Source of the DNA: Candidatus Omnitrophota bacterium
GTDB taxonomy: Bacteria; Omnitrophota; Gorgyraeia; Zapsychrales; Zapsychraceae
Reading direction: 5' to 3'
NCBI GenBank assembly: GCA_029261065.1
Contig: JAJDCB010000030.1
Coordinates: forward strand, 196,876 to 260,875
Length of the DNA stretch: 64,000 nucleotides
Shown here: positions 4,476 through 22,683 of the stretch, in pieces
How the letters are laid out: each line of letters starts with the position of its first letter
Numbering within the stretch: the first letter of the stretch is position 1
Translations under genes and position numbers: made by a program
The notes under the pieces: generated by a model
Databases searched by the model: none
Told to the model about the DNA's origin: nothing
The model's input: only the letters and a program-made list of their open reading frames with translations

Positions 4476-6185
4476 ATGAATAAATTTAAAGTATGCGCAA
4501 TTGGCGTCTTGCTCGTAATATTTTCTCTATCTTGTGTTTTTTTCCTTGATCGGATGTTCGCCGCCTCCCAAAGCCCTCTCTGGCTTGATGAACATTATGG
4601 GTTAAAACGTTCGACCCGTTATCCTAGTTATGGAGAACTCATTGTTCGTGGTGCCCAGTCCCAAGGAAGTGCCGCCCCGCTAGATTTTCTTATTATTAAA
4701 AGTATTGATAAGATGAAAACATCTCTTAATTGGTTGGGATTAAGACCGCATGTTTATTATCGTTTATTCGCTAACCTTGTAACCGTTTTTAGTGGGCTGC
4801 TTATTTTTATTTTGTTTCTAAAAGAGGTTTATCGGGAAAAAGAACACCTCTGGCTAAGGTATGTTCAGCTGCTCCTACTGATACTTGGCATCATGTCTTA
4901 TTATTATGCCCCCGTTATTCATCATTATGCGGCTGAGATGCGACCATATGCTTTGTGGAGTTCTCTTTGGTTTATTGTTCTTGGTTTAACATTATTGAGA
5001 GTGGCATGGATGCCGTATATCTTCGTTACTCTCATTTTATTATCCTTTAGCGCCACAGCTTCTATTTTTCAGATGGGGGCCTTGGGTATTTGTTATTTTT
5101 TTCTTAGCGCATCTTCAAATCGAAAACAAAGTCTTGTTGAGATAGTCAAAGTTTTTGGTTTACCAATTTTCATTGCACTGTATTACTGCTTACAAGTTCA
5201 ACAGTTTGATCACCCAGCTGAAAGCAATACCTGGAATAATTTTTTCACCTTTTGGAGTCATAAAGCTTATTTGCTTCCTTTATTGATTATGGTTACAGGG
5301 TTTTGTTTATTTCAGAAAAAGAGTAAGTCGTTGGCGATTGCACCTGCAAGTGTTGTATTGTTAACTCTTATGGGCCCCTTAATTTTCTTCATTACAAGAT
5401 TAAAGGGCGTCTTTTTAGCGGAAAGGCATTACATTTATTATGATCATATTCTGCCAATAACGATATTGACACTTGTTGTTGTATTTCCAATAATTATTGA
5501 GCGTATTAATAGTAAAGTTTGGCAAAAGGGAGTCGTTATTGGGTTAGTTCTTATTGCAATAATAGTCACTTTTCGTCCTGCGGTGAATAAGCGCTTTAAG
5601 GCTAGTGTTATTAATGGTTTGTATTTGTTGAAAGATGCTTCTTTGATTAAACAGACATCTCTTGATAAAAAGTTTACGGTTCCTTATTGGGATTCCGATA
5701 AACTAATTTGGGAGGCGAAAGATTTTTCAAGGGCGTCTCAGCATATAATAGGTCAGGCCGTTTGGTTTTTTGATGAGAAGAATCCAAGAATTGCATTGGT
5801 TCATGAAGTGGGTGATGATAAGATAAATCAACAGTCTTTAATTGAGATCGTTAAGCAGCACTATTCTACGGGAGAATTAAAGGTAACTGTTCCCTATCTG
5901 GATGGCGAAATCCATGGGGATCTAGAAATGTTTTATAAAGATGGTTCGTATAAAGCTTTGGCTCAGTATGTTAAAGGCCAACAGCATGGTTTGACGCGTA
6001 AATATTATAAAAATGGTAAGCTTCAAGCTGAAGGGGCGTTTGTTGCAGGTAAAACACAAGGAAAGTCTCTTTTTTATTATGAAAATGGGAGTGTCCAACG
6101 TGAAGATCATTTTGAAAAAGGGCAGTTGCTACAACGAAAACAATTTAATCAAGATGGTCAATTAATCTCAGAAAAAAAGTTCTAA
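4476..6185 (+). CDS. polytopic membrane protein with C-terminal MORN/YwqK-type repeats
   Basis: ~10 predicted TM segments, then YxxGxxxxxxxYxxGxxxG repeats in the last ~90 aa. Confidence 0.6.
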   Translation: MNKFKVCAIGVLLVIFSLSCVFFLDRMFAASQSPLWLDEHYGLKRSTRYPSYGELIVRGAQSQGSAAPLDFLIIKSIDKMKTSLNWLGLRPHVYYRLFANLVTVFSGLLIFILFLKEVYREKEHLWLRYVQLLLLILGIMSYYYAPVIHHYAAEMRPYALWSSLWFIVLGLTLLRVAWMPYIFVTLILLSFSATASIFQMGALGICYFFLSASSNRKQSLVEIVKVFGLPIFIALYYCLQVQQFDHPAESNTWNNFFTFWSHKAYLLPLLIMVTGFCLFQKKSKSLAIAPASVVLLTLMGPLIFFITRLKGVFLAERHYIYYDHILPITILTLVVVFPIIIERINSKVWQKGVVIGLVLIAIIVTFRPAVNKRFKASVINGLYLLKDASLIKQTSLDKKFTVPYWDSDKLIWEAKDFSRASQHIIGQAVWFFDEKNPRIALVHEVGDDKINQQSLIEIVKQHYSTGELKVTVPYLDGEIHGDLEMFYKDGSYKALAQYVKGQQHGLTRKYYKNGKLQAEGAFVAGKTQGKSLFYYENGSVQREDHFEKGQLLQRKQFNQDGQLISEKKF

Positions 6186-6188
6186 GGT

Positions 6189-7649
6189 ATGTATTATTTT
6201 AATCCATATGCTATTGGGCCGTTATTAACGGGAGTGATGTGTTTTGCTTTAGGGCAATATGTGCATCAGATGGATCGTGAAGATCGGACACGTCAGGCTT
6301 TTTTTGGTTTGAATGTGTTAGCGAGTCTTTGGTGTTTGAGTCAAGCGATGGTGTTAAGTGCTACAGATTTAACGTTAGCCAGCTTTTGGTCTCATGTTAT
6401 GTTCTCAGCCATCATCCTTATGCCTGTCAGCATGTTTCATTTGGCCAGTCATTGGTGTAAGAGATATCAACGACAAAAGCTTATTCGATGGGTGATAAAT
6501 TTTCAAGCCTTATGCCTTGTGATCTTAAGTTGGGGACCCGATTTTTTATCGGGATACACGCCATACTTTTTCGGTCTTTTTCCGCGAGCAGGTGCTTTGA
6601 TGTATTTAGTTGTTTTCTTTATGTTGTCTAATTTCACAATCAGTTTTTTAAACATTAATAAGTATCATTTTTCTCAAAAAAAATTAAAAAAAAGACAAGA
6701 AGCTCGTTTTGTGATGTTATCGTTCTTGATTCTTCTTTTAAGTTATTCGGATGTTTTTGTTAGTTATCAACAAAGTTTGTATCCTTTAGGTTATATTGTT
6801 CTCTTTGGATTTTCTTTAAGTATGTCATTGTTTCTTTTAAGAAAAAGTGTGGCTTTATTGCATGAGCGTGTAAGGAGTGTTGAGGAGCAAATGCAATTTA
6901 AATCTAATGAGGCATCTATAGTTTCTGAAGAACTGAAAGGCGTGCAGTTTCAGCTCTTGGAAGCTGGAAAAAAATCAGCATTAGTAAGTTTGAGTGCAGG
7001 AATCCTTCATCAAATTAGCCAACCTATTACAGCAATTTATGGGTTTATCAAATTTTTAAAAAAAGAGGTAAAAGAAGATCACGAGTTTTATAAGCCGATC
7101 CATCTGGTAGATGAGCAAACGATGTATTTAAAGCAGATGCTTGGAAATTTGATGGAGCTTGTGCAGCATAAAGATATAAAGAAGGAAGCTATTAATGTTA
7201 ATGAACCTGTAGAAAATGCTGTTAATTTATTAACGGATGAATTACGCATTGGACGGGTTAAGTGGGAGTTAGACCTAGCTGAGGATTTGCCTCAGATTTG
7301 TGCGGATAACATTAATCTTCAACAAATTTTCATGAACTTTATTATTAATGCCATTCAAGCCCTTGGAACGTTGCCCAAGGGGGAGGAGCGTCAGTTATTG
7401 GTGTCGAGTAAGGTTGATGAGGATAACAAATTTGTTGCAGTGTCTTTTCAAGATTCTGGTCCGGGGGTCAGTAAAGGAGAGGTGGAGCGGATATTTGAGC
7501 CGTTTTATTCTACGAAAGAAAAGGCTGTTGGGATTGGCTTAGCCCTTTGTCAGGATTTGGTTGAGGAGCATGGGGGGCAGATTTTGGTGGATTCAAGTGT
7601 TAAGCAGGGTGTTAGTTTTGTGGTGAAGTTGCCGGTGATTGGATCGTAA
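6189..7649 (+). CDS. sensor histidine kinase (membrane N-terminal domain, HisKA, HATPase_c)
   Basis: H-box LHQISQPITAIYGF; G-box region GIGLALCQDLVEEHGGQI; multi-TM N-terminus. Confidence 0.8.
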   Translation: MYYFNPYAIGPLLTGVMCFALGQYVHQMDREDRTRQAFFGLNVLASLWCLSQAMVLSATDLTLASFWSHVMFSAIILMPVSMFHLASHWCKRYQRQKLIRWVINFQALCLVILSWGPDFLSGYTPYFFGLFPRAGALMYLVVFFMLSNFTISFLNINKYHFSQKKLKKRQEARFVMLSFLILLLSYSDVFVSYQQSLYPLGYIVLFGFSLSMSLFLLRKSVALLHERVRSVEEQMQFKSNEASIVSEELKGVQFQLLEAGKKSALVSLSAGILHQISQPITAIYGFIKFLKKEVKEDHEFYKPIHLVDEQTMYLKQMLGNLMELVQHKDIKKEAINVNEPVENAVNLLTDELRIGRVKWELDLAEDLPQICADNINLQQIFMNFIINAIQALGTLPKGEERQLLVSSKVDEDNKFVAVSFQDSGPGVSKGEVERIFEPFYSTKEKAVGIGLALCQDLVEEHGGQILVDSSVKQGVSFVVKLPVIGS

Positions 7650-8303: not shown

Positions 8304-10070
8304 TTATTTTCTTTTCGGTCGATATATATGCGTACTCTGACCATAGAAGCTTTCCGCTGCTTCCATAATCGTTTCGCTAAGAGTGGGATGAGGATGTATG
8401 GTGAGTTTCAGATCAGAGGCAAGTGCGCCCATTTCTAAAGCGAGGACACCTTCGGCGATCATCTCACCGGCACCAGCTCCAACAATGGAGACACCTAAAA
8501 TACGTTCGGTATCAGGATCAATAAGAAGTTTTGTAAGGCCATCGGTACGATCCAATGTGATAGCACGACCGGATGCGGCCCAAGGAAACTTTTGTACAAC
8601 GTAATTTCGATTCTGGGCTTTAGCTTCTGTTTCGGTTAACCCGCACCAAGCAATCTCAGGATCTGTAAAGACAACGCATGGAATGGCATTGGGTTCAAAG
8701 GCAACTTTGTGACCGGCGATGGTTTCAGCCGCGACAATACCTTCATGAGATGCTTTGTGGGCTAACATGGGTTGTCCTACAATATCACCAATAGCAAAAA
8801 TGGATGGATCTGCCGTTTGCATCTGTGCGTTAACGTCAATAAATTTTTGTTCATTAAGAGTGATTTTTGTCTTTTCTAATCCGATGTTTTCCGTGTTTGG
8901 ACGACGACCGATGGCCATTAATACTTTTTCATATTCTTTATCAAATGTCTTTCCATCTTTATCTTCAAATGTAACTTTAAGACCCTTTTCAACTTCTTCA
9001 ATTTTAGCCACTTTTGTTTCAACCATAATATCGCGTAGGATTGTTTTTAATCTCTTCTCTAAAATGTTAGCCACATCTCGATCGGCGCCAGCCATAAGGG
9101 TAGGAAGCATTTCAACGACGTCAAGCTCGCTTCCTAATTCAGCATAGACCGTACCTAATTCAAGTCCGATGTATCCACCGCCCACAAGCAACATGGTCTC
9201 TGGAACGCTTTCGATATCAAGGGCTGTTGTTGAATCGAGTATGCGTGGGGAATCTGGTAAGTTAGGAATCATGATAGGTCGTGATCCTGTTGCCAGAATG
9301 GCTTTTTCAAATTTTAACTCTTCATTAGATCCATCGGCTTTGGCAATGTTCAGTGTGTTAGAGTCAACAAAGGTGCAGCGGCCTTGAATGAATTTAACTT
9401 TACGTTGTTTGGCTAGTTGTCCTAAACCACTTGTCAGTCGATCAACCACACTATTTTTCCACGCTCGTAATTTATCTAAGTAGATCTTAGGACGACCAAA
9501 TTCAATACCAAAATTCGCAGCTTCTTTGGCTTCTGATAAAACTTTAGCAGCATGAAGAAGAGCTTTAGAAGGAATACATCCGCGGTACAAACAGACGCCT
9601 CCGGGATTAACATCCAAATCAATTAAGGTCACATCTAATCCAAGATCAGCGGCCATGAAGGCGGCCGTGTAACCACCAGGTCCACCACCGATGACAACAA
9701 CACTTTTGTTTTCTGTTGGAACTGTTTCTTCAACGGCGGCAGGTTTCGGTTGCGATTCTGTTTTGGGAGCTTCGGGTGTTGATTTTTGTTCGGTCACAGG
9801 TTTGCTTTCAGGCGCGGATGATTTTTCAGCTGCAGCGGATTCTTCGATTGTTAAGACAACAGAGCCAACTTTAATTTCATCACCTTCTTTAACTAAGATT
9901 TCTTTAACGACACCTCCTACAGGCGAGGGGACAGGAAGGGATGCTTTATCTGTCTCTAATTCAATAAGGTCTTGATCTTTGGTAATGGTGTCACCGACAG
10001 CGACAAAGATTTTAACAATTGTACCTGATTCTATATTTTCACCGACTTCGGGGAGTTTGAATTCGAACAT
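8304..10070 (-). CDS. lpdA: dihydrolipoyl dehydrogenase E3 with N-terminal lipoyl domain
   Basis: lipoyl motif LELETDKASLPVPSP; FAD-binding GGGPGGYTAAF; redox-active CLYRGCIPSK; Ala/Pro/Glu linker. Confidence 0.9.
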   Translation of the reverse strand: MFEFKLPEVGENIESGTIVKIFVAVGDTITKDQDLIELETDKASLPVPSPVGGVVKEILVKEGDEIKVGSVVLTIEESAAAEKSSAPESKPVTEQKSTPEAPKTESQPKPAAVEETVPTENKSVVVIGGGPGGYTAAFMAADLGLDVTLIDLDVNPGGVCLYRGCIPSKALLHAAKVLSEAKEAANFGIEFGRPKIYLDKLRAWKNSVVDRLTSGLGQLAKQRKVKFIQGRCTFVDSNTLNIAKADGSNEELKFEKAILATGSRPIMIPNLPDSPRILDSTTALDIESVPETMLLVGGGYIGLELGTVYAELGSELDVVEMLPTLMAGADRDVANILEKRLKTILRDIMVETKVAKIEEVEKGLKVTFEDKDGKTFDKEYEKVLMAIGRRPNTENIGLEKTKITLNEQKFIDVNAQMQTADPSIFAIGDIVGQPMLAHKASHEGIVAAETIAGHKVAFEPNAIPCVVFTDPEIAWCGLTETEAKAQNRNYVVQKFPWAASGRAITLDRTDGLTKLLIDPDTERILGVSIVGAGAGEMIAEGVLALEMGALASDLKLTIHPHPTLSETIMEAAESFYGQSTHIYRPKRK

Positions 10071-10099
10071 GATTGCCTTGTTTGTATTGTTGATTATGG

Positions 10100-10195
10100 A
10101 AGCGAGTGATAGAGTGCTAGAGTGATAAAGTGGTAGGTTGAGTTTTTATTAACAATTTTTATTATCACTTTATCACTCTAGCACTTTACCACTAA
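10100..10195. repeat. inverted array of 8-mer units (GAGTGATA/CACTCTAC family B) forming a long hairpin
   Basis: left arm GAGTGATAGAGTGCTAGAGTGATAAAGTGGTAG, right arm ATCACTTTATCACTCTAGCACTTTACCACT; located between aceF stop and lpdA start. Confidence 0.8.
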
Positions 10196-10217
10196 ATAAA
10201 TTTAATCTTAATCCAAT

Positions 10218-11498
10218 CTATCCCTCAAGTTCCATCATAAACGGTTGCTCAATCGCCTCACACACCCATTTTAAAAACCGAGCGCCATCAGCGCCATCGA
10301 TGATGCGATGGTCGTAGGACAAGGAAAGGGGGAGCTTAAAGCGTGGGATGAATTGTTTATTTTCATAAACAGGTTCCCATCCCCCTCGAGAAACGCCAAG
10401 AATAGAAACTTCAGGCCAATTGACAATTGGTGTAAAACTTGTGCCATAAATGCCACCCAAATTTGTTAAGGTGATACATCCGCCTCGCAAATCATCAATC
10501 ACAGTCTTTTTTGTGCGTGCTTTCTCAGCCATATCGTTTAATTCTTCATGAATTTCAAAAATACTCTTTTTCTCAACATCTCGAATAACAGGAACGAGTA
10601 AGCCTCGATCTGTGTCAACGGCAACGCCAATACTAAAGTATTTTTTATATATAATTTCGTACGTATTCATATCAATGCTGCAATTAAATTGAGGAAATGT
10701 TTTAAGGGCAGCTGCCATGACTTTTAATAGAAACGGCGTGATTGTTAACTTTCGTTCGGGTGTTGAATATTTTTTGCGTAGCTTTTCTAGGTCTGTAATA
10801 TCCGCCTTGCCAAATTGAGTCACATGAGGGATGTTTTGCCAGCAATAGCTTAAATGATCAGCGGTGACTTTTCTAATTTTAGGCATGGGTTCACGATTAA
10901 TCTCACCCCATTTTGAAAAATCTGGTAAAGCTTTCTGTGCCATGCTAGCACCAGACGCGGCTCCACCACCGGATGTGTTTAATTGTTTGGCAAAGGCCTT
11001 AACATCATCTTTTGAAACGCGACCTGAAGGTCCTGTTCCAGGGACTTGGGAGACATCGATGCCAATCTCACGTGCAAATCGTCGAATGGAAGGGGCGGCG
11101 GCGACATCTTTTTGAGCTGGAATAGCTTTTGCTGGTGCTGCTTGTGCCTTAGGAGCAGGCTTTGATTCCGCTTTTGGTGCTTCAGCTTTAGGCTTCTCTG
11201 CTGGAGTTTCTTTTTTTGTAGTTGGAGTTTCCGGTTTGCTTGTCGTCGCTTGTTCTGCAACTTCACCAGCTTCAATGGTCATGGCCAACTGACCAATCTT
11301 CACCTCATCGCCAGCTTTAATATGGATCTCTTTAATGACACCATCTGCTGGAGAGGGAATAGGAAGAGATGCTTTATCTGTCTCAAGCTCCAATAAATCT
11401 TGATCTTTCTTAACGGAATCACCGACAGCGACAGCTAAGCTGACAACTGTTCCTGATTCAATATTTTCACCAACTTCAGGGATTTTAAATTCAAGCAT
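10218..11498 (-). CDS. aceF: dihydrolipoamide acetyltransferase E2 (pyruvate dehydrogenase complex)
   Basis: lipoyl domain LELETDKASLPIPSP; Ala/Pro-rich linkers; E3-binding region; catalytic DHRIIDGADGARF. Confidence 0.9.
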   Translation of the reverse strand: MLEFKIPEVGENIESGTVVSLAVAVGDSVKKDQDLLELETDKASLPIPSPADGVIKEIHIKAGDEVKIGQLAMTIEAGEVAEQATTSKPETPTTKKETPAEKPKAEAPKAESKPAPKAQAAPAKAIPAQKDVAAAPSIRRFAREIGIDVSQVPGTGPSGRVSKDDVKAFAKQLNTSGGGAASGASMAQKALPDFSKWGEINREPMPKIRKVTADHLSYCWQNIPHVTQFGKADITDLEKLRKKYSTPERKLTITPFLLKVMAAALKTFPQFNCSIDMNTYEIIYKKYFSIGVAVDTDRGLLVPVIRDVEKKSIFEIHEELNDMAEKARTKKTVIDDLRGGCITLTNLGGIYGTSFTPIVNWPEVSILGVSRGGWEPVYENKQFIPRFKLPLSLSYDHRIIDGADGARFLKWVCEAIEQPFMMELEG

Positions 11499-11539
11499 GA
11501 TAGTTTCCTTCTTGCAAAGCGGGATTTAAAAAGCACTAA

Positions 11540-11675
11540 TGTCATCTCAAGACAGCAATGTCATCCTCGCGAAAGCGGGGATCCATTAGTAGTTATAAAG
11601 ATTACGAAGTTCCCGCTGGGGCTTACCCAATAGGATTCCCGCTTTCGCGGGAATGACAGATGGAGCGGGGATTAC
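11540..11675. repeat. REP-like element family A (inverted pair)
   Basis: GTCATCCTCGCGAAAGCGGGGATC ... GGATTCCCGCTTTCGCGGGAATGAC. Confidence 0.85.
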
Positions 11676-11677
11676 TT

Positions 11678-14359
11678 TTACGAAATCATCGGATTCAATT
11701 TATCCGGATTAATATTCAAATCTTTCGCCGCCTGCTCAACAATACTAGCCTCAATTTTCTTTTCCTTGCATAACTGTCCTAACGCGGTAAAAGCAATGTG
11801 ACGGGCGTCGACTTCAAAGAAATCGCGAAGGGCTTGGCGTGATTCGCTGCGGCCAAAACCGTCTGTTCCAAGAGTGGCATGAGGGTTTAAGATCCATTTG
11901 GAAAGTCCATCAGGCATAATCTTCATGTTATCTGAGGCAAAGACACAAACATCATCGTTTCCTTTAAGGATATCTTGAATGTAAGGCGTCTTTTGTTCTT
12001 TTGTCGGGTTAAGCATGTTGTAACGCTCAACATCCAGACAATCGCGACGGAGTTGATTGTAGCTTGTAATGCTCCAGACATCGGAGGCGACGTCATATTT
12101 TTCTTCTAATATTTTTTGGGCTTCTAACACTTGATTAAGAATCGCCCCACTCCCAAAGAGTTGAACATGCGCTTTGTCGGTCGTTTTTTCTTCACTCTTA
12201 AATTTATACATCCCCTTTATAATGCCTTCTTTAGATCCTTCAGGCATATCTGGCATCGGATAATTTTCGTTACCCACACTAATGTAATAAAAAACATTTT
12301 CTTGTTTTTCATACATGCGATAAATACCTTCTCGGATAATCACGGCAATTTCAAAAGCGTAAGTTGGATGATAAGTAATAATGTTTGGAACGGTGGAAAG
12401 AAGGACATGGCTGTGTCCATCTTGATGTTGTAAACCTTCACCGTTAAGTGTTGTTCGACCAGCTGTACCACCGATAAGAAATCCTCGGCATCGAGAGTCA
12501 GCTGCCAACCAAATCAAATCACCCACGCGTTGAGGGCCAAACATGGAATAATAAATATAGAAGGGAATTGTGTTAATCCCGTGAGTTGAGTACGCTGTTC
12601 CAGCGGCAATAAAAGAGGAGATGGCGCCAGCTTCATTGATGCCTTCTTCTAAAATTTGACCATCGATCGCTTCTTTATAATAGAGAAGACTCTTAGCATC
12701 GACCGGTTCATAAAGTTGTCCAACATGAGAATAGATGCCGAATTGTCTAAATAATCCTTCCATCCCAAATGTTCTCGCTTCATCAGGAATGATAGGAACA
12801 ATGAGTTTTCCGATTTCTGGATCTTTGAGCAATTCTGTGAGGATACCAACATAGGCCATGGTTGTTGAGATGTCACGACCAACCATTTTACTTGTCGCCT
12901 TTTTGAAAAATTCCTCAGAAGGTGTTTTAAGCGGTTCGCTTGTTTCTTGACGAGCTGGCATGTATCCGCCAAGCGCTGTCCGACGTTCTTGAAGATATTT
13001 CATTTCTTCTGAGTCTTCGGCTGGTTTGTAGAAGGGGGCATCAGCGACTTCGTCATCAGAGATAGGAATGCTAAAACGTGTGCGAAATTCGCGCAATTCA
13101 TCTTCGTTTAACTTCTTTTGCTGATGAGTAATGTTTTTCCCTTCACCACTTTCACCAAGCCCGTATCCTTTAATTGTTTTAGCAAGAATAACAGTTGGCG
13201 CGCCCTTAAAATCAGAAGCGGCTTTATAAGCGGTATAAACTTTTTCAGGGTCATGACCACCACGTTTTAAGGTGCGTAATTGTTCGTCGGATAAATTTTT
13301 AACCAAGTCTAGCAATTCAGGATCTTTGCCAAAGAAATCATTACGAATGTATTCGCCGGATTCTACCGAATATTTTTGATATTGTCCGTCAACAACCTCG
13401 CCCATACGTTTAACGAGTAACCCTTGCTCATCATTTTCTAATAGCGGATCCCAGTCTCCTCCCCAAACAACTTTTATGACATTCCATTGGGCCCCACGAA
13501 ATAGCGCTTCAAGCTCTTGAATAATCTTTCCATTACCGCGAACAGGTCCGTCTAAACGTTGAAGGTTACAATTGATGACAAAAACCAAATTATCTAATTT
13601 CTCACGCGAAGCCATCGTTAGCGCCCCTAAAGATTCAGGTTCATCAGATTCCCCATCACCCATGTAGACCCAAATTTTGGCATCGTCTTTTTGTTTTAAT
13701 CCACGATCTTCTAAATAACGCATAAAGCGTGCTTGATAAATACTGCAAATAGGACCTAATCCCATTGATACGGTTGGAAATTGCCAGAAGTTTGGCATCA
13801 ACCAAGGGTGAGGATAAGAGGAGAGACCTTTTTCCTCTTGAAGCTCTCGTCGGAAATTTTTTAGATTTTCTTCGCTTAAACGCCCTTCAACAAAGGCGCG
13901 TGAATACATTCCAGGAGAGGCATGACCTTGAAAATAAACAAAGTCGCCACAAAAGTCTTTAGTGCGCGCGCGAAAGAAATGGTTGTATCCGACTTCATAA
14001 AGAGTCGCTGATGATGCGTACGTTGAAATATGTCCACCAATCCCCGCTTCAGCCCGATTTCCACGCACAACCATAGCCATTGCATTCCAACGAATAATAC
14101 TTTTAATGCGTCGTTCAATTTCTCGATTACCAGGGTAAGTTGGTTGTTTATCTGGGTGAATAGTGTTGACGTAAGGGGTGTTGACGGTAAAGGGAAGGGT
14201 AACGCCGGCTTCTTGAGCACGAATTTGAAGGCGGGCTAATATTTGTTGAGCTTGATCTTTCGATCCATTCTTTAAAACATATTCAAGAGAACTTAACCAC
14301 TCTTGAACTTCTATTTCATCGACCTCAGTGGATCGGTTGTTGACGCCATCTGGACTCAT
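11678..14359 (-). CDS. aceE: pyruvate dehydrogenase E1 component, homodimeric type
   Basis: 893 aa; ThDP-dependent E1 layout upstream of aceF-lpdA on the same strand. Confidence 0.9.
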   Translation of the reverse strand: MSPDGVNNRSTEVDEIEVQEWLSSLEYVLKNGSKDQAQQILARLQIRAQEAGVTLPFTVNTPYVNTIHPDKQPTYPGNREIERRIKSIIRWNAMAMVVRGNRAEAGIGGHISTYASSATLYEVGYNHFFRARTKDFCGDFVYFQGHASPGMYSRAFVEGRLSEENLKNFRRELQEEKGLSSYPHPWLMPNFWQFPTVSMGLGPICSIYQARFMRYLEDRGLKQKDDAKIWVYMGDGESDEPESLGALTMASREKLDNLVFVINCNLQRLDGPVRGNGKIIQELEALFRGAQWNVIKVVWGGDWDPLLENDEQGLLVKRMGEVVDGQYQKYSVESGEYIRNDFFGKDPELLDLVKNLSDEQLRTLKRGGHDPEKVYTAYKAASDFKGAPTVILAKTIKGYGLGESGEGKNITHQQKKLNEDELREFRTRFSIPISDDEVADAPFYKPAEDSEEMKYLQERRTALGGYMPARQETSEPLKTPSEEFFKKATSKMVGRDISTTMAYVGILTELLKDPEIGKLIVPIIPDEARTFGMEGLFRQFGIYSHVGQLYEPVDAKSLLYYKEAIDGQILEEGINEAGAISSFIAAGTAYSTHGINTIPFYIYYSMFGPQRVGDLIWLAADSRCRGFLIGGTAGRTTLNGEGLQHQDGHSHVLLSTVPNIITYHPTYAFEIAVIIREGIYRMYEKQENVFYYISVGNENYPMPDMPEGSKEGIIKGMYKFKSEEKTTDKAHVQLFGSGAILNQVLEAQKILEEKYDVASDVWSITSYNQLRRDCLDVERYNMLNPTKEQKTPYIQDILKGNDDVCVFASDNMKIMPDGLSKWILNPHATLGTDGFGRSESRQALRDFFEVDARHIAFTALGQLCKEKKIEASIVEQAAKDLNINPDKLNPMIS

Positions 14360-14389
14360 AGGAATTCCTTATGATTGGTTATAATGATT

Positions 14390-14484
14390 AGAGTGATAGA
14401 GTGGTAAAGTGATAGAGTGGTAAGAATTGCGGAATTAACTCCATACTATCACTTTATCACTCTACCACTTTATCACTTTTTTTG
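14390..14484. repeat. family B 8-mer inverted array followed by T7 run
   Basis: AGAGTGATAGAGTGGTAAAGTGATAGAGTGGTAAG ... TATCACTTTATCACTCTACCACTTTATCACT TTTTTTT; sits in the aceE 5' region. Confidence 0.8.
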
Positions 14485-14599: not shown

Positions 14600-14735
14600 T
14601 GCCTTGCATGTTATTCGTGCCCTGTATGTCATTTCCGCCCCATATGTCATTCCCGCGAAAGCGGGAATCTCCTGGAGCCAAGTTTGTTATAAAACCCTAT
14701 TTCAGATCTCGGATTAAGTCTGGTACGACAAGCTC
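14600..14735. repeat. REP-like element family A with TGTCATT tandem units
   Basis: TGTCATTTCCGCCCCATATGTCATTCCCGCGAAAGCGGGAATC + AGATCTCGGATTAAGTCTGGTACGACAAG. Confidence 0.85.
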
Positions 14736-14747
14736 AACATAATTTCT

Positions 14748-15767
14748 CTACACCACATGAGCCAACCCCGCATTAAGAAGCTCTTGATTAAGATACTTCC
14801 CTTTTTGTGCCACAATTTTGGCATCAGTTTCGTTCTTTAAATAAAAAACATCCACCAGGTAACGATCGTATTTATCGGTGGTGTAGGTTTTGTGGGTTTT
14901 GATGATGAGGGGAGAGGCGTTTTTAAGCTGTGCCTCTACAAAATTTTTGGCTTTGGCGCCTTTGGCAGATGACATCTCTGGGGTGTTGATGTGACGCAGG
15001 CGTAATCGTTGGCTGATGAAGGTGTTAAATCCGCAATCAATGATCGCGATTAAGGTATCGCCATCCACGACTCTTTGAAGATGGGCTTTGTAACAAAAAC
15101 GTTGATCGTCATCGCTGGTCACGCGATTTATTTTGGTTCCATTAACGTGAAGATAATCTTGATCCTTTAGGCGGATGCCTTTAAGGGGAGGCAGAGGTTT
15201 TAAAATTTTAAAACCGCAATCCACAAAGAGGGGCGCGTTCTTTGAAGGGATTTCAGGGACGCTTATCACTTGATAAGTGTTTAATTGGCCTCGGGTAAAA
15301 GCTAACGTTGGAGGATTTTGTGATATTTGATGAATGCGTTCACGTGTTTTGAGTGTTGTAATCTGCTGAGCTAATTCGTTAGAATTCCAATTGTTTTTTA
15401 GGGCGCGATTTTCTATCTGTAGTCTTTGTTGATCATCTTTGACGGTGAGTAAAAGCTTGTACTTGGTCCATTCCAATTCTGGCCGCGCGGCCAGTTTTGG
15501 GTAGGTTTGATAAAATTTAACCACCCGCCACAAGAGGCTCCCGCTACAATTTAAATCTTCCGCCAATCGTTCAATCACCGTCTTCCCGTATTCGGGCTTT
15601 GCCGCATTCTCCAAAATATGCTCTGAAATATATTGTCCGACACTCCAATAAGTCCCCACCGTTTCTTGTTTGATTAACCTCTCTAACCCCATCAACCGAT
15701 CCTTCACCCGCACCAACAATGTTGAATATTTAGAACCAAGTGCAATGACATTCTTTTTTTTAGGCAT
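14748..15767 (-). CDS. DUF1016 (YhcG N-terminal domain) fused to SNase-like (thermonuclease) domain
   Basis: N-terminus YWSVGQYI...YGKTVIERLAEDL...LWRVVKFYQTYP (DUF1016_N pattern); C-terminus VVDGDTLIAII...RLRLRHINTPE...YDRYLVDVF (SNase pattern). Confidence 0.6.
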   Translation of the reverse strand: MPKKKNVIALGSKYSTLLVRVKDRLMGLERLIKQETVGTYWSVGQYISEHILENAAKPEYGKTVIERLAEDLNCSGSLLWRVVKFYQTYPKLAARPELEWTKYKLLLTVKDDQQRLQIENRALKNNWNSNELAQQITTLKTRERIHQISQNPPTLAFTRGQLNTYQVISVPEIPSKNAPLFVDCGFKILKPLPPLKGIRLKDQDYLHVNGTKINRVTSDDDQRFCYKAHLQRVVDGDTLIAIIDCGFNTFISQRLRLRHINTPEMSSAKGAKAKNFVEAQLKNASPLIIKTHKTYTTDKYDRYLVDVFYLKNETDAKIVAQKGKYLNQELLNAGLAHVV

Positions 15768-15769
15768 CT

Positions 15770-16012
15770 TTAATTTCCTTTCCAGTCTAATGGTTTGCTA
15801 CCACCGACACTCATGCAGAGGTCTTTGACTTCTTTGAGCCCGTAAATAATAAGATATTCATCTTCAGTGGGTTTAAATTCTTCACTTAGCATGTCTACAG
15901 GGCGGCCGGCAATTCTCGCTTTGAGATATTGTTTGCAGTCATTGATGTACATGCAGACTTCCTTTTTAAAACTTCCTGTCCAAAATTCTGTTGGGATCTC
16001 ATCTTTATTCAT
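15770..16012 (-). CDS. small hypothetical protein, 2-nt gap to the nuclease gene
   Basis: 80-aa ORF directly upstream on same strand as 14748..15767. Confidence 0.4.
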   Translation of the reverse strand: MNKDEIPTEFWTGSFKKEVCMYINDCKQYLKARIAGRPVDMLSEEFKPTEDEYLIIYGLKEVKDLCMSVGGSKPLDWKGN

Positions 16013-16297
16013 GCGATGTTTCCTTTTCTTGTGTGTTGGTTAATTTTTATAAGTATACGTATCATTTAAAAACCTGTCAACGTTGCGTTGATGGAGGGGG
16101 TGTTTGATGTTAAACTGGAGCATAATCTGTGACACCTGTCATTATTCATACAAAAGAAATAAACTCTTTCCATTTTGGAAACAGTTTAAAATGAGGGGAT
16201 GAAGGGATCTGGTACTAAAATACTGATTTAGCTAAAGAAAGTAGAATGCTGAGTAAGTTGGATGAAATTTAAGCTAATAAACAAAGGATAAATAATT

Positions 16298-17551
16298 ATG
16301 AAACGGATAGTTCTTATGGCAGTATTCTTATGCATAATACAAATTGCATTTGCTCAGGAAAAGCTAAAAGATGGAGTTTTTAATGATTATTACGACAGCG
16401 TTAGTTTGAAGGAGGAAGTCATATATAACAATGCTGAAAAGCATGGTCCTTTTAAAAAGTATTATGAAAATGGGAGTCTTTATAGTGAAGGTGTATATGT
16501 TAATGGAAAGTTATATGGAATAGTAAAATATTATTACGACAATGGGCAGTTACATAAAGAAGTAGAATATCTGGATGGAAAGAGGAACGGTGTTGAAAAG
16601 ACCTATACAAATCCGAATCAAGGAATTGGAACAGAATCTTATTTGTATAGTGAGATTGGATATAAGGATAACAAATATCATGGTGTCTATAAAACATACT
16701 ATCCTAACGGGCAAATAATAGTTGAAAAGCAGATTGTTAATCAAAAAGAAGAGGGTGAATTAAAAGAATATTATCAAGATGGTTCATTGAAACAAAAAAG
16801 CATTGTCAAGAATGGTCGTCCTGTTGAAGAAAAGAACTTTGATGAAAGTGGTAATCTCCTTCCCAGTGGTTTTAGAGATGGAATGTATTGGCAGTATGAT
16901 GTAAGTGGAAAATTAAAATTAACTCATGAACCTGTTTATAATAGTAAAGATGGAATTATGGGAATATATCGTTATTATTATCCAAATGAAAAAATTAAAT
17001 TAGAGATACCAATTACTAAAGGTGGAAGTGAGTTAGGCTTTTGTGTTCATGGCCTTATGAAAATCTATTTTGAAGATGGTCAGTTAAAAGATGAGGTTAG
17101 GTTTAGAGATTGCAAAGAAGATGGTGGCGTTCAGCGATTTTATAATAATGGGCAGTTAAGAGAAAAAGGTGTTTACAAAGAGGGTGAATGGCTTAAAGTA
17201 AAAAGATTTAACAGAAAAGGCGAAGAACTTGCTAAAGGCCCCACAATACATATTGAGTTTGATAAAGGAAAGTATATTTCAGGGGATATAGTTACAATTT
17301 ATATTGATAATAATTTAAATAGCCATGTAAGATTAGCGTGGCTTTTTATTTGTGCAGAAGGCGATAGTGATTGGGATTGCAAATCTAAGAACTCTGATAT
17401 TAGCGGTAGTACTATTGATAAGGGTGAAACGATGATTGTAGAATTAAAAGCTGATGAACTAACCCCTGGTAAAGGTAAATTTAGAGTTTCATATGCAACG
17501 GATGGTGAATATCCCTTTTTCGAATCCCAAGAGTTTATTTTCACTAAATAA
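16298..17551 (+). CDS. secreted MORN/YwqK-repeat protein
   Basis: signal peptide; >8 repeats of YYxNGQLxxEgxYxxGKxxG. Confidence 0.7.
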   Translation: MKRIVLMAVFLCIIQIAFAQEKLKDGVFNDYYDSVSLKEEVIYNNAEKHGPFKKYYENGSLYSEGVYVNGKLYGIVKYYYDNGQLHKEVEYLDGKRNGVEKTYTNPNQGIGTESYLYSEIGYKDNKYHGVYKTYYPNGQIIVEKQIVNQKEEGELKEYYQDGSLKQKSIVKNGRPVEEKNFDESGNLLPSGFRDGMYWQYDVSGKLKLTHEPVYNSKDGIMGIYRYYYPNEKIKLEIPITKGGSELGFCVHGLMKIYFEDGQLKDEVRFRDCKEDGGVQRFYNNGQLREKGVYKEGEWLKVKRFNRKGEELAKGPTIHIEFDKGKYISGDIVTIYIDNNLNSHVRLAWLFICAEGDSDWDCKSKNSDISGSTIDKGETMIVELKADELTPGKGKFRVSYATDGEYPFFESQEFIFTK

Positions 17552-19158: not shown

Positions 19159-19614
19159 ATGTCAAGCGCTATTGCCACCAACAAAAAAGCTTTTCGCGAT
19201 TTTTTCCTCTCTGATAAATGGGAATGCGGGATTGCCCTTTTAGGTGGTGAGGTTAAATCCATTCGAGCCGGGCATGTCAATTTTAAAGATACCTTTGCTC
19301 GCATCGATAAAGGCGAGATCTTTCTTTATAACCTTCATATTGAGCAATATAACGCTGCCAGCCACATGAATAAAGAGCCGGATCGCGTGCGTAAACTTTT
19401 GATGCATAAGAAAGAAATTAAGCGTCTTGAAGGTAAACTAAATCAGCAGGTGGGAACGCTCATTCCAACGAAGATTTATTTTAATAAGCGAGGCTTAATT
19501 AAGGTTGAGATTGCCTTGGGACGAGGAAAGAAGCTTTATGATAAGCGTGAAGCGATTAAGAAGCGGGATGTGGATCGCCAGATTGGGCGGGAGATGCGTA
19601 ATCGGCGGGGGTGA
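19159..19614 (+). CDS. smpB: SsrA-binding protein
   Basis: GIALLGGEVKSIR...YNLHIEQY...KIYFNKRG pattern typical of SmpB; 151 aa. Confidence 0.9.
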   Translation: MSSAIATNKKAFRDFFLSDKWECGIALLGGEVKSIRAGHVNFKDTFARIDKGEIFLYNLHIEQYNAASHMNKEPDRVRKLLMHKKEIKRLEGKLNQQVGTLIPTKIYFNKRGLIKVEIALGRGKKLYDKREAIKKRDVDRQIGREMRNRRG

Positions 19615-22126: not shown

Positions 22127-22542
22127 GGGGGTGACATGGTTTCGACTTGGGTTATCGGAGTTTGAGTGGCATGCGGAGGACGTCTGGTTGGCCTCCTAAA
22201 AAATCCAGGCACACAATAAACGCTAACGATGAAACGTTGACGTTTGCTAGCTTGACTAATTCAACAATGGACAGCGATGTTCCTGTTGAACCATCACTAG
22301 CAACAGCACCAGCCTTATCGGTCTAATTCACTGGTAAGCCCTCTTGTAGCAGGCCTGTGGGTTACAAGTGGAACAAGCAGGCTGGTCTTATAAATTTGCT
22401 TCATTTATAAGATAAGATTTAGAAGCTAGTTTCATTTACGTTTGTTTATTTAGAGAAGTGAAGCGAAATTAAAAATAAACTAAGCATGTAGAAGCTCTTA
22501 CAAAGGAACCAAAGGACCGGGGTTCGATTCCCCGCACCTCCA
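22127..22542 (+). ncRNA. ssrA: tmRNA (transfer-messenger RNA)
   Basis: 5' GGGGGTGACATGGTTTCGAC and 3' GGACCGGGGTTCGATTCCCCGCACCTCCA (T-arm + acceptor) match tmRNA ends; tag frame starts GCT AAC GAT GAA (ANDE...) at 22222, stop at 22324. Confidence 0.85.
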
Positions 22543-22683
22543 TTTAGTTGTAGTGCATCTCCACCCCATTGAGGTGCATAGGCTTATGATAGTATATTGT
22601 TTTAATTCTCGATTGGTGCCCATTTAGTGCCCAAAGTATCACATTTTTCTTGCATTCATTCTATTGACTATTATAATAAACCC

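Follow-up and report, generated by a model that had tools for sequence, protein, structure and literature searches.

The window analysed here is the whole of a 64,000-nucleotide (nt) stretch of a Candidatus Omnitrophota genome (assembly GCA_029261065.1, contig JAJDCB010000030.1, positions 196,876 to 260,875 of the forward strand). It carries a unit of two genes on its minus strand. The downstream gene (14748..15767) encodes a nuclease of 339 amino acids (aa) in which the N-terminal domain of the YhcG/DUF1016 proteins is followed by a thermonuclease (SNase) domain. The upstream gene (15770..16012, called as an open reading frame or ORF) encodes an 80-aa protein that we refer to as the partner. 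The nuclease is a variant of the YhcG architecture (PF17761 + PF06250) and not a member of it, because the YhcG N-domain is present but YhcG_C is not. We argue, with somewhat less than even confidence, that it is the DNA-targeted effector of a toxin-antitoxin (TA)-like or defence module and that the partner regulates it.

An earlier note, made from the letters alone, had proposed that the usual PD-(D/E)XK nuclease of YhcG is swapped here for an SNase domain, and profile searches on both halves bear this out. Pfam places DUF1016_N (PF17761) at aa 31-138 (E 2.5e-18, 66.9 bits against a cut-off of 32.8) and SNase (PF00565) at aa 254-338 (E 2.8e-7, 31.4 bits against a cut-off of 21). A phmmer search matches staphylococcal thermonuclease in the PDB to aa 228-310 (E 7.7e-5), and the PHROGs family phrog_452, an endonuclease, matches aa 218-337 (E 3.6e-26). 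The best NCBIfam matches are thermonuclease-type equivalogs, all far under their cut-offs. An AlphaFold2 (AF2) model built from an alignment of 55 relatives has a predicted local distance difference test (pLDDT) score of 92. Foldseek ranks SNase structures at the top when this model is compared with the PDB (E 5e-7, template modelling score on the target 0.69, root mean square deviation 2.1 A), and TNase-like phage proteins when it is compared with viral models. The model and the profiles together divide the protein into a helical N-terminal domain that holds DUF1016_N (aa 12-149, 15321..15734), a small beta-strand middle domain seen with AF2 and hhalign (aa ~160-218, 15114..15290) and the SNase catalytic domain with its oligonucleotide/oligosaccharide-binding (OB) fold (aa 225-339, 14751..15095), all on the minus strand.

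The N-terminal half belongs with YhcG and the C-terminal half does not. Canonical YhcG protein P0109, which has DUF1016_N and a YhcG_C domain at E 4e-55, aligns credibly with the nuclease across the N-domain only. PADLOC gives 23 matches to PDC-S02 candidate models, the best with E 2.2e-22 over aa 30-145, but every one of them is confined to aa ~8-155 of the protein and to the N-terminal part of the model, and none spans the full length. PF06250 (YhcG_C) has no match to the protein up to E = 1 in Pfam, and no PD-(D/E)XK family was found in the C-terminal half by the Pfam, NCBIfam or PADLOC scans. The sole PD_DExK match from PADLOC (E 1.8e-4) falls at aa 100-140, within the N-domain. A divergent PD-(D/E)XK nuclease in the C-terminal half is thus ruled out by the profile scans, the SNase sequence, the fold and the catalytic residues.

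These catalytic residues are all in place. In the SNase of Staphylococcus aureus catalysis depends on D21, R35, E43 and R87, and D40 is a ligand of Ca2+. The motifs picked out in the earlier note, VVDGDTL and RLRLRHINTPE, lie at aa 232-238 and aa 254-264, and they supply D235 and D237 (D19 and D21), R256 (R35) and E264 (E43). R302 is the equivalent of R87. In an alignment of the family the equivalents of D19, D21, R35 and R87 are invariant in 78/78 members and that of E43 is kept in 72/78. The D40 position is N261 in the window protein; it is D in 66/78 relatives and N in 12/78. On this basis the SNase domain appears catalytically equipped, and the protein is a predicted phosphodiesterase. Mean identity within the family reaches 53% in the SNase domain, against 31% in the N-domain and 29% in the middle one. 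Since the SNase domain is the most conserved of the three, the pattern would fit recognition modules that diversify next to a catalytic module that stays fixed.

The N-domain is presumed to be a module for recognition or sensing of nucleic acid. HTH_ParB, a helix-turn-helix (HTH) family of Pfam, matches it weakly (E 0.081, and 0.0017 for the homolog at L084), and a profile search of the PDB finds Spo0J/ParB (6sdk) at E 0.04 and Noc at ~0.9, which are also weak. PF17762 is co-annotated on two DUF1016_N proteins. Fusions among 119 relatives of the N-domain involve no recorded domain other than YhcG_C and SNase. In the middle domain the first hairpin repeats the opening strands of SNase in degenerate form, without the DGD motif (hhalign probability 89.5%, E 2e-6, 31 columns), and the short members of the family, of ~275 aa, do not have a middle domain at all. 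The N-terminus has neither a signal peptide nor a transmembrane segment by sequence. The nuclease is presumably cytoplasmic because it lacks a secretion signal. The gene has a run of eight A's at 15754-15761 (minus strand) from its third codon (ATG CCT AAA AAA AAG). This run codes for the Lys-rich N-terminus typical of the family and is also a potential slippage tract.

The two genes are closely coupled. The junction reads GGA AAT TAA ag ATG CCT, so only 2 bases separate the stop codon of the partner from the start codon of the nuclease, and the coordinates and the 2-nt gap given in the earlier note are correct. A Shine-Dalgarno-like AAGGAA lies within the 3' end of the partner ORF, 8 nt before the nuclease ATG. 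A sigma-70-like promoter (TTGACA-17 nt-TATACT, 11/12 consensus matches) is found at 16052..16080 on the minus strand, ~40 nt 5' of the partner ATG, and no comparable site lies between the two genes. This site likely serves both genes, as judged from a consensus match only in a region where the count of promoter-like sites equals the expectation from shuffled sequence. The 2-nt gap, the ribosome-binding-site motif inside the partner gene and the promoter-like site 5' of the partner alone give a layout that would fit a bicistronic, translationally coupled operon.

The partner is a real protein under strong constraint, as judged from its substitution pattern. Its family consists of 20 clusters, 19 besides the window's own, with 61-74% identity and 29 invariant columns. 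The invariant block is FK..VCMYINDC.QYL...EF.PT..E.LIIYG.K..K. Pairwise nonsynonymous divergence (dN) is 0.13-0.28 and synonymous sites (dS) are saturated; the DNA is ~71% identical where the protein is 72% identical. The small ORF as a chance ORF, or as an RNA or DNA element, is ruled out by the invariant columns, the saturated dS and the low dN. It is a rare protein, with just 22 representatives among 1.84 billion proteins. It has no match in Pfam, NCBIfam, PADLOC or a profile search of the PDB, its PHROG match is non-significant (E 0.16), and tblastn finds no match in 50,697 phage genomes. The AF2 model is a hairpin of two helices with a pLDDT of 60, too poor for a fold search.

What ties this protein to the nuclease is its position. 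The earlier note took the two genes as a unit, and from the side of the partner this stands. The partner lies directly 5' of a DUF1016_N-SNase gene in 8/10 contexts of close relatives, with gaps of 2 nt in the window, 5 in L065, 12 in L020, 11 in L014, 13 in L084, 0 in L092, 13 in L088 (where the nuclease is frameshifted) and 215 in L089. At L086 the partner is 122 nt downstream of the nuclease. At L082 it has no nuclease and adjoins an AAA_14/DUF4143 ATPase. An ATPase of this kind is near both the L082 partner, which it follows, and the L076 nuclease described below. From the side of the nuclease the partner is a minority feature, found in just 3/80 loci. This count and those of neighbourhoods and upstream ORFs given below were taken over 80 nuclease loci, with 150 nearest neighbours sampled. 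The nucleases that are linked to a partner do not form one clade, as they are scattered on a neighbour-joining tree. More distant relatives of the partner (E 1e-14 to 1e-23) occur among short overlapping genes in phage-like contigs where no SNase gene is nearby. The relative at L093 (1225-1467) adjoins an Amidase_2-type endolysin, the one at L095 (526-780) has an upstream ORF that is amidase-like in sequence, and the one at L096 (5001-5255) is closely followed by genes for an integrase and a cI-like HTH protein.

The slot upstream of the nuclease has other occupants as well. In the long forms of the partner (P0132 with 213 aa, P0135 with 220 aa, the 207-aa ORF of L020, and P0134) the 80-aa domain is joined to an SNase-like domain. 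These are 43-53% identical to one another over their full length. Their DGD is replaced by DKQ, NPD or TPR, R35 by H, T or A, and E43 is lost, so by its residues this domain should be catalytically dead. At L020 and L092 such a gene for pseudo-nuclease plus partner is followed by a nuclease gene with an intact active site. One would expect such a pseudo-nuclease to mimic the active domain or to form a pair with it. Three of the 80 loci (L019, L022 and L032) have instead a 55-aa ORF with a MazE/AbrB-type antitoxin domain (PF04014, E 5.8e-8). It shares 4 nt with the beginning of the nuclease gene in L019 and L032 and a single base in L022, and no MazF-like domain is present among the scanned neighbours of L019 and L022. 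The pseudo-SNase long forms and the MazE-type ORFs favour an upstream slot that codes for a binder or restrainer of the nuclease. There is also a third candidate for an upstream partner. It is a conserved, Cys-rich and zinc-ribbon-like protein of 120-134 aa without a Pfam match that is found 3-27 nt 5' of the nuclease at two Omnitrophota loci (L010 1382-1786 and L011 9560-9922).

The fusion is not unique to the window. The family comprises 109 protein clusters, nearly all with both Pfam domains, and some of these have already been named automatically as 'thermonuclease family protein' or 'DUF1016 N-terminal domain-containing protein'. It is uncharacterised but already in the databases under generic names. 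There are 201 tblastn-confirmed copies in representative genomes, mostly in metagenome-assembled genomes of Omnitrophota and 'Planctomycetales', in Leptospiraceae, Latescibacterota and Marinamargulisbacteria, and there are further copies on 24 Leptospira plasmids. The nearest relative of the window nuclease is merely 44% identical to it. Many genomes have 2-4 divergent paralogs, usually 40-70% identical to one another. The Latescibacterota contig CBDCJO010000002.1 has four (L059, L060, L071 and L057, at about 9910-10945) with DNA homology of 83-94%, and this homology starts and stops within ~10 nt of the ORF. Each of these four copies is followed by degenerate pyrimidine-rich arrays of short repeats (CTGACCTCTGACCCCTG, CGAATCACGATCCACGAACC) at about 11000-12800, and a repeat of ~1.5 kb (97.6% identical) is found a few kb from them. 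A search of the literature on DUF1016, YhcG, PDC-S02 and SNase in TA or defence found no functional study of the family or the fusion.

The genomic neighbourhoods of the relatives are mixed. Canonical DUF1016 genes are reported to be enriched beside restriction-modification (RM) and BREX loci (PMC9881135), and the PDC systems are untested 'guilt-by-embedding' candidates (bioRxiv 10.1101/2024.01.29.577857). The earlier note asked whether homologs of the fusion sit in defence islands, and some of them do. At L076 (6392-10987) hsdM (N6_Mtase + HsdM_N) comes first, followed by an AAA_14/DUF4143 ATPase, by 66 aa left over from the C-terminus of HsdR (T1RH-like_C, E 7e-13) and last by the DUF1016_N-SNase gene, so that the nuclease borders on a type I RM system in decay. 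The nuclease of L089 follows a type III-like RM system and L032 adjoins a ResIII helicase. In all, copies of the family are found beside DarT-DarG, an SLFN-type helicase, an OLD-TOPRIM ATPase, a type III-like RM system with RhuM-Fic and the decayed type I RM system. Four of the partner-bearing loci are clearly defence islands, with DarT-DarG, SLFN-type helicase, MazG, OLD-TOPRIM ATPase, Mut7-C, type III-like RM, RhuM-Fic or TnsA-like genes. But the 150 nearest neighbours are mostly housekeeping genes, with a few ORF6N, N6_Mtase, Eco57I, PIN_2, HTH_3 and nucleotidyltransferase domains. A universal partner or neighbour of the nuclease was looked for and rejected, as the upstream ORFs are 48 singletons plus a few small clusters and the near and far Pfam content is heterogeneous.

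Within the window the unit does not lie in a defence island. This is ruled out by its neighbours, namely aceE-aceF-lpd, MORN-repeat proteins, a histidine kinase, Tag, SmpB and transfer-messenger RNA (tmRNA). On the 3' side of the nuclease a repeat-rich spacer of 388 nt leads to the aceE-aceF-lpd (pyruvate dehydrogenase) operon on the same strand. On the 5' side a MORN-repeat protein, an uncharacterised 237-aa protein, Tag, SmpB and tmRNA are divergently transcribed. The G+C content of the unit is ~42%, like that of aceE, and is 31-35% on the other flank.

The mechanism we propose would work as follows. DUF1016_N, and with it the middle domain, would recognise some feature of a nucleic acid and bring the SNase domain to DNA, or possibly to another nucleic acid, which the SNase domain would then cleave. 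The co-translated partner would bind the nuclease and restrain or tune it in the manner of an antitoxin or immunity protein. The pair would act as a TA-like or single-effector defence cassette of the YhcG kind, which is the kind of the PADLOC candidate PDC-S02. We arrive at a conflict system because of the PDC-S02 matches, the 2-4 paralogs per genome, the defence and RM neighbours at other loci and the Leptospira plasmids. A role in defence or abortive infection is plausible from the context in other genomes. Binding of nucleic acid by the N-domain, nuclease activity in vivo, the interaction of the two proteins together with its sign, and the part in conflict or defence are all inferred. A bolder version would take the 80-aa protein and the pseudo-SNase long forms as an undescribed family of cognate partners, either immunity/antitoxin-like or sensing a trigger, that gate an SNase effector of YhcG type. 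That would make a new two-component nuclease conflict system, and we hold it to be doubtful. If it is true, the distant partner relatives that phages carry could act in counter-defence, as inhibitors of nucleases of this type.

Several observations sit badly with a conflict system regulated by the partner. In the window the unit is solitary, since its neighbours are housekeeping genes, and across the sampled loci the Pfam content of near neighbours is not clearly enriched over a distal control set. The scarcity of the partner among nuclease loci means that most nucleases have no recognisable partner, which implies the nuclease is not obligatorily toxic or is self-restrained. The partner can also stand without a nuclease (L082), and its distant relatives in phage-like contigs do the same. 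It has no recognised antitoxin fold, whether ribbon-helix-helix, HTH, AbrB/MazE or Phd, nor any match to a DNA-binding family, and its AF2 model is poor. It is far more conserved than the nuclease while the linked nucleases are scattered on the tree, which is unusual for an antitoxin that co-evolves with its toxin. In the nuclease, N261 at the D40 position means that metal use and activity may differ, and the likeness of the N-domain to the ParB HTH is weak (E 0.04-0.08). Finally, no experiment on any DUF1016 protein was found in the literature.

There are other explanations to weigh. The conservation of the partner could mean that it is an activator, a sensor, an adaptor or a transcription regulator of the operon, derived from phage, with the nuclease idle until the partner senses a phage cue. 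The partner far exceeds the nuclease in conservation and recurs in shuffled combinations with divergent nucleases, which suggests contact with something conserved, be it the SNase core, DNA, or a factor of phage or host. Its distant relatives beside endolysin or integrase genes, and the partner next to an AAA_14/DUF4143 ATPase without a nuclease, point the same way. However, it carries no signature of a DNA-binding domain and no structural match, the tblastn search of phage genomes was empty, and the MazE analogy of the upstream slot favours an inhibitor. We consider an activator, sensor or regulator unlikely. It could also be argued that there is no conflict at all, and that the nuclease is a housekeeping enzyme of nucleic-acid processing or repair (acting, for example, on the nucleoid, on recombination intermediates or in RNA turnover) with a small accessory subunit. 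Its neighbours in the window and at many loci work in core metabolism or translation, and both proteins are under purifying selection. Against this stand its patchy distribution, its variable copy number and its presence on Leptospira plasmids. It keeps no synteny with genes of repair or replication, the relatives of the N-domain are candidates embedded in RM and BREX loci, and some copies have MazE-type partners. This makes a purely housekeeping role rather improbable.

The copies in unrelated and mostly housekeeping neighbourhoods, several to a genome, would also be explained if the nuclease were a selfish, free-standing mobile gene similar to a homing endonuclease. Cleavage by the SNase domain at a DNA site chosen by the N-domain would let the gene spread through repair-mediated copying, with the small gene as a passenger or regulator. 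The four copies on the Latescibacterota contig, whose DNA homology ends so close to the ORF, would fit such a gene. The copies on Leptospira plasmids agree with it too, and so do the phage endonucleases that are the closest SNase-domain relatives outside the family. On the other hand, the paralogs of one genome are old for the most part, with 40-70% identity. The flanks differ between loci and show neither a recurrent target gene nor a target-site duplication, and no host gene with an intron or intein was seen. SNase cleaves without specificity and is not known as a homing enzyme. Nor are MazE-type and 80-aa partners in the upstream slot expected of homing genes. We give a homing gene little probability. 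The remaining objection, that the C-terminal half is a misread divergent PD-(D/E)XK domain or that the small ORF is there by chance, has practically no probability left. It is refuted for the C-terminal half by Pfam, the PDB sequence match, the AF2 model with Foldseek and the invariant residues, and for the small ORF by its relatives and their constraint. A DNA-targeted effector with the partner as its regulator is the reading we keep, tentatively.

Even if none of the functional readings holds, the domains have been read correctly, though their shuffling is then an ordinary one within an uncharacterised family. The swap of the nuclease by itself would not surprise a specialist. The ultra-conserved mini-partner, the pseudo-SNase fusions and the MazE substitutes lend the finding a moderate interest beyond the swap, since they bear on how a non-specific cytoplasmic nuclease is kept harmless. 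YhcG/DUF1016 genes are among the commonest uncharacterised genes embedded in RM and BREX loci, and they have no demonstrated mechanism. The swap shows DUF1016_N to be a portable targeting or sensing module and the nuclease to be an interchangeable effector. The SNase fold is the best understood nuclease fold in biochemistry, with standard assays and standard active-site mutants, so this variant is a tractable one for finding the target of DUF1016_N.

Some features of the surrounding DNA should be recorded. A palindrome resembling repetitive extragenic palindromes, ATTCCCGCTTTCGCGGGAAT, lies at 14627-14670 between the nuclease stop codon and aceE, and repeats of the 'GGAAATGACATA' type are found on the flanks. 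These give rise to spurious ORFs that read '...SFPRKRES...' and 'VIPAKAGI'. Copies of the palindrome (24-45 nt, 84-100% identity) occur at unrelated loci of Omnitrophota and Deltaproteobacteria, namely L006 4227-4271, L009 (twice) and L063 20181-20204. An inverted repeat at 14389-14420 and 14441-14477 has arms of ~32 nt that are 84-88% complementary and consist of 8-nt periodic units (TAGAGTGA and TAAAGTGG). It is located 30-120 nt 5' of the start codon of aceE and may serve the pyruvate dehydrogenase operon as an operator or as a structured leader. Elsewhere in the window there are two MORN_2-repeat proteins (4476-6185 and 16298-17551), a seven-transmembrane-type histidine kinase (6189-7649), SmpB (19159-19614) and a full-length tmRNA (22127-22545, 179.8 bits), which is the sole match in an Rfam scan of the window. 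GC skew of the plus strand is strongly positive over the entire window.

It is worth considering where this system stands among the known ones. It shares with YhcG/DUF1016 the helical DUF1016_N and the plan of an N-terminal recognition domain with a C-terminal nuclease. The habits are shared too. Both are solitary genes, sometimes at or inside RM systems (L076 and L089 here), both occur on plasmids and both are found in several copies per genome. The differences are that an SNase domain with its OB-fold takes the place of the PD-(D/E)XK YhcG_C domain and that a beta-strand middle domain is added. A subset that includes the window also has a dedicated 80-aa partner gene, and canonical YhcG is not known to have one. 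The weak likeness of the N-domain to ParB, Spo0J and Noc (PF17762) concerns its C-terminal helices (aa ~90-140) and the DNA-binding region of ParB.

By sequence, fold and catalytic residues, D40N excepted, the nuclease belongs to the SNase superfamily (PF00565), whose members include S. aureus Nuc, B. subtilis YncB and phage endonucleases. The fold and the equivalents of D19, D21, R35, E43, Y85 and R87 are shared with this family. The phage endonucleases are closest to its SNase domain, with 38-39% identity to those of Staphylococcus phages. It differs in that it lacks a secretion signal and is tethered to DUF1016_N. The window protein has N at D40 and T at T41, where most relatives have C or A at the latter position, and it has an extra 'IDxGF' hairpin after the DGDT strand. 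The closest parallel to the two-gene unit is a type II TA system with the MazE-MazF layout. In both a small upstream gene is tightly coupled to the gene of the nuclease, the cassettes are solitary and there are divergent paralogs. The unit departs from that model in that its partner has no recognisable antitoxin fold and is more conserved than the putative toxin, and in that most of the nuclease paralogs are partnerless.

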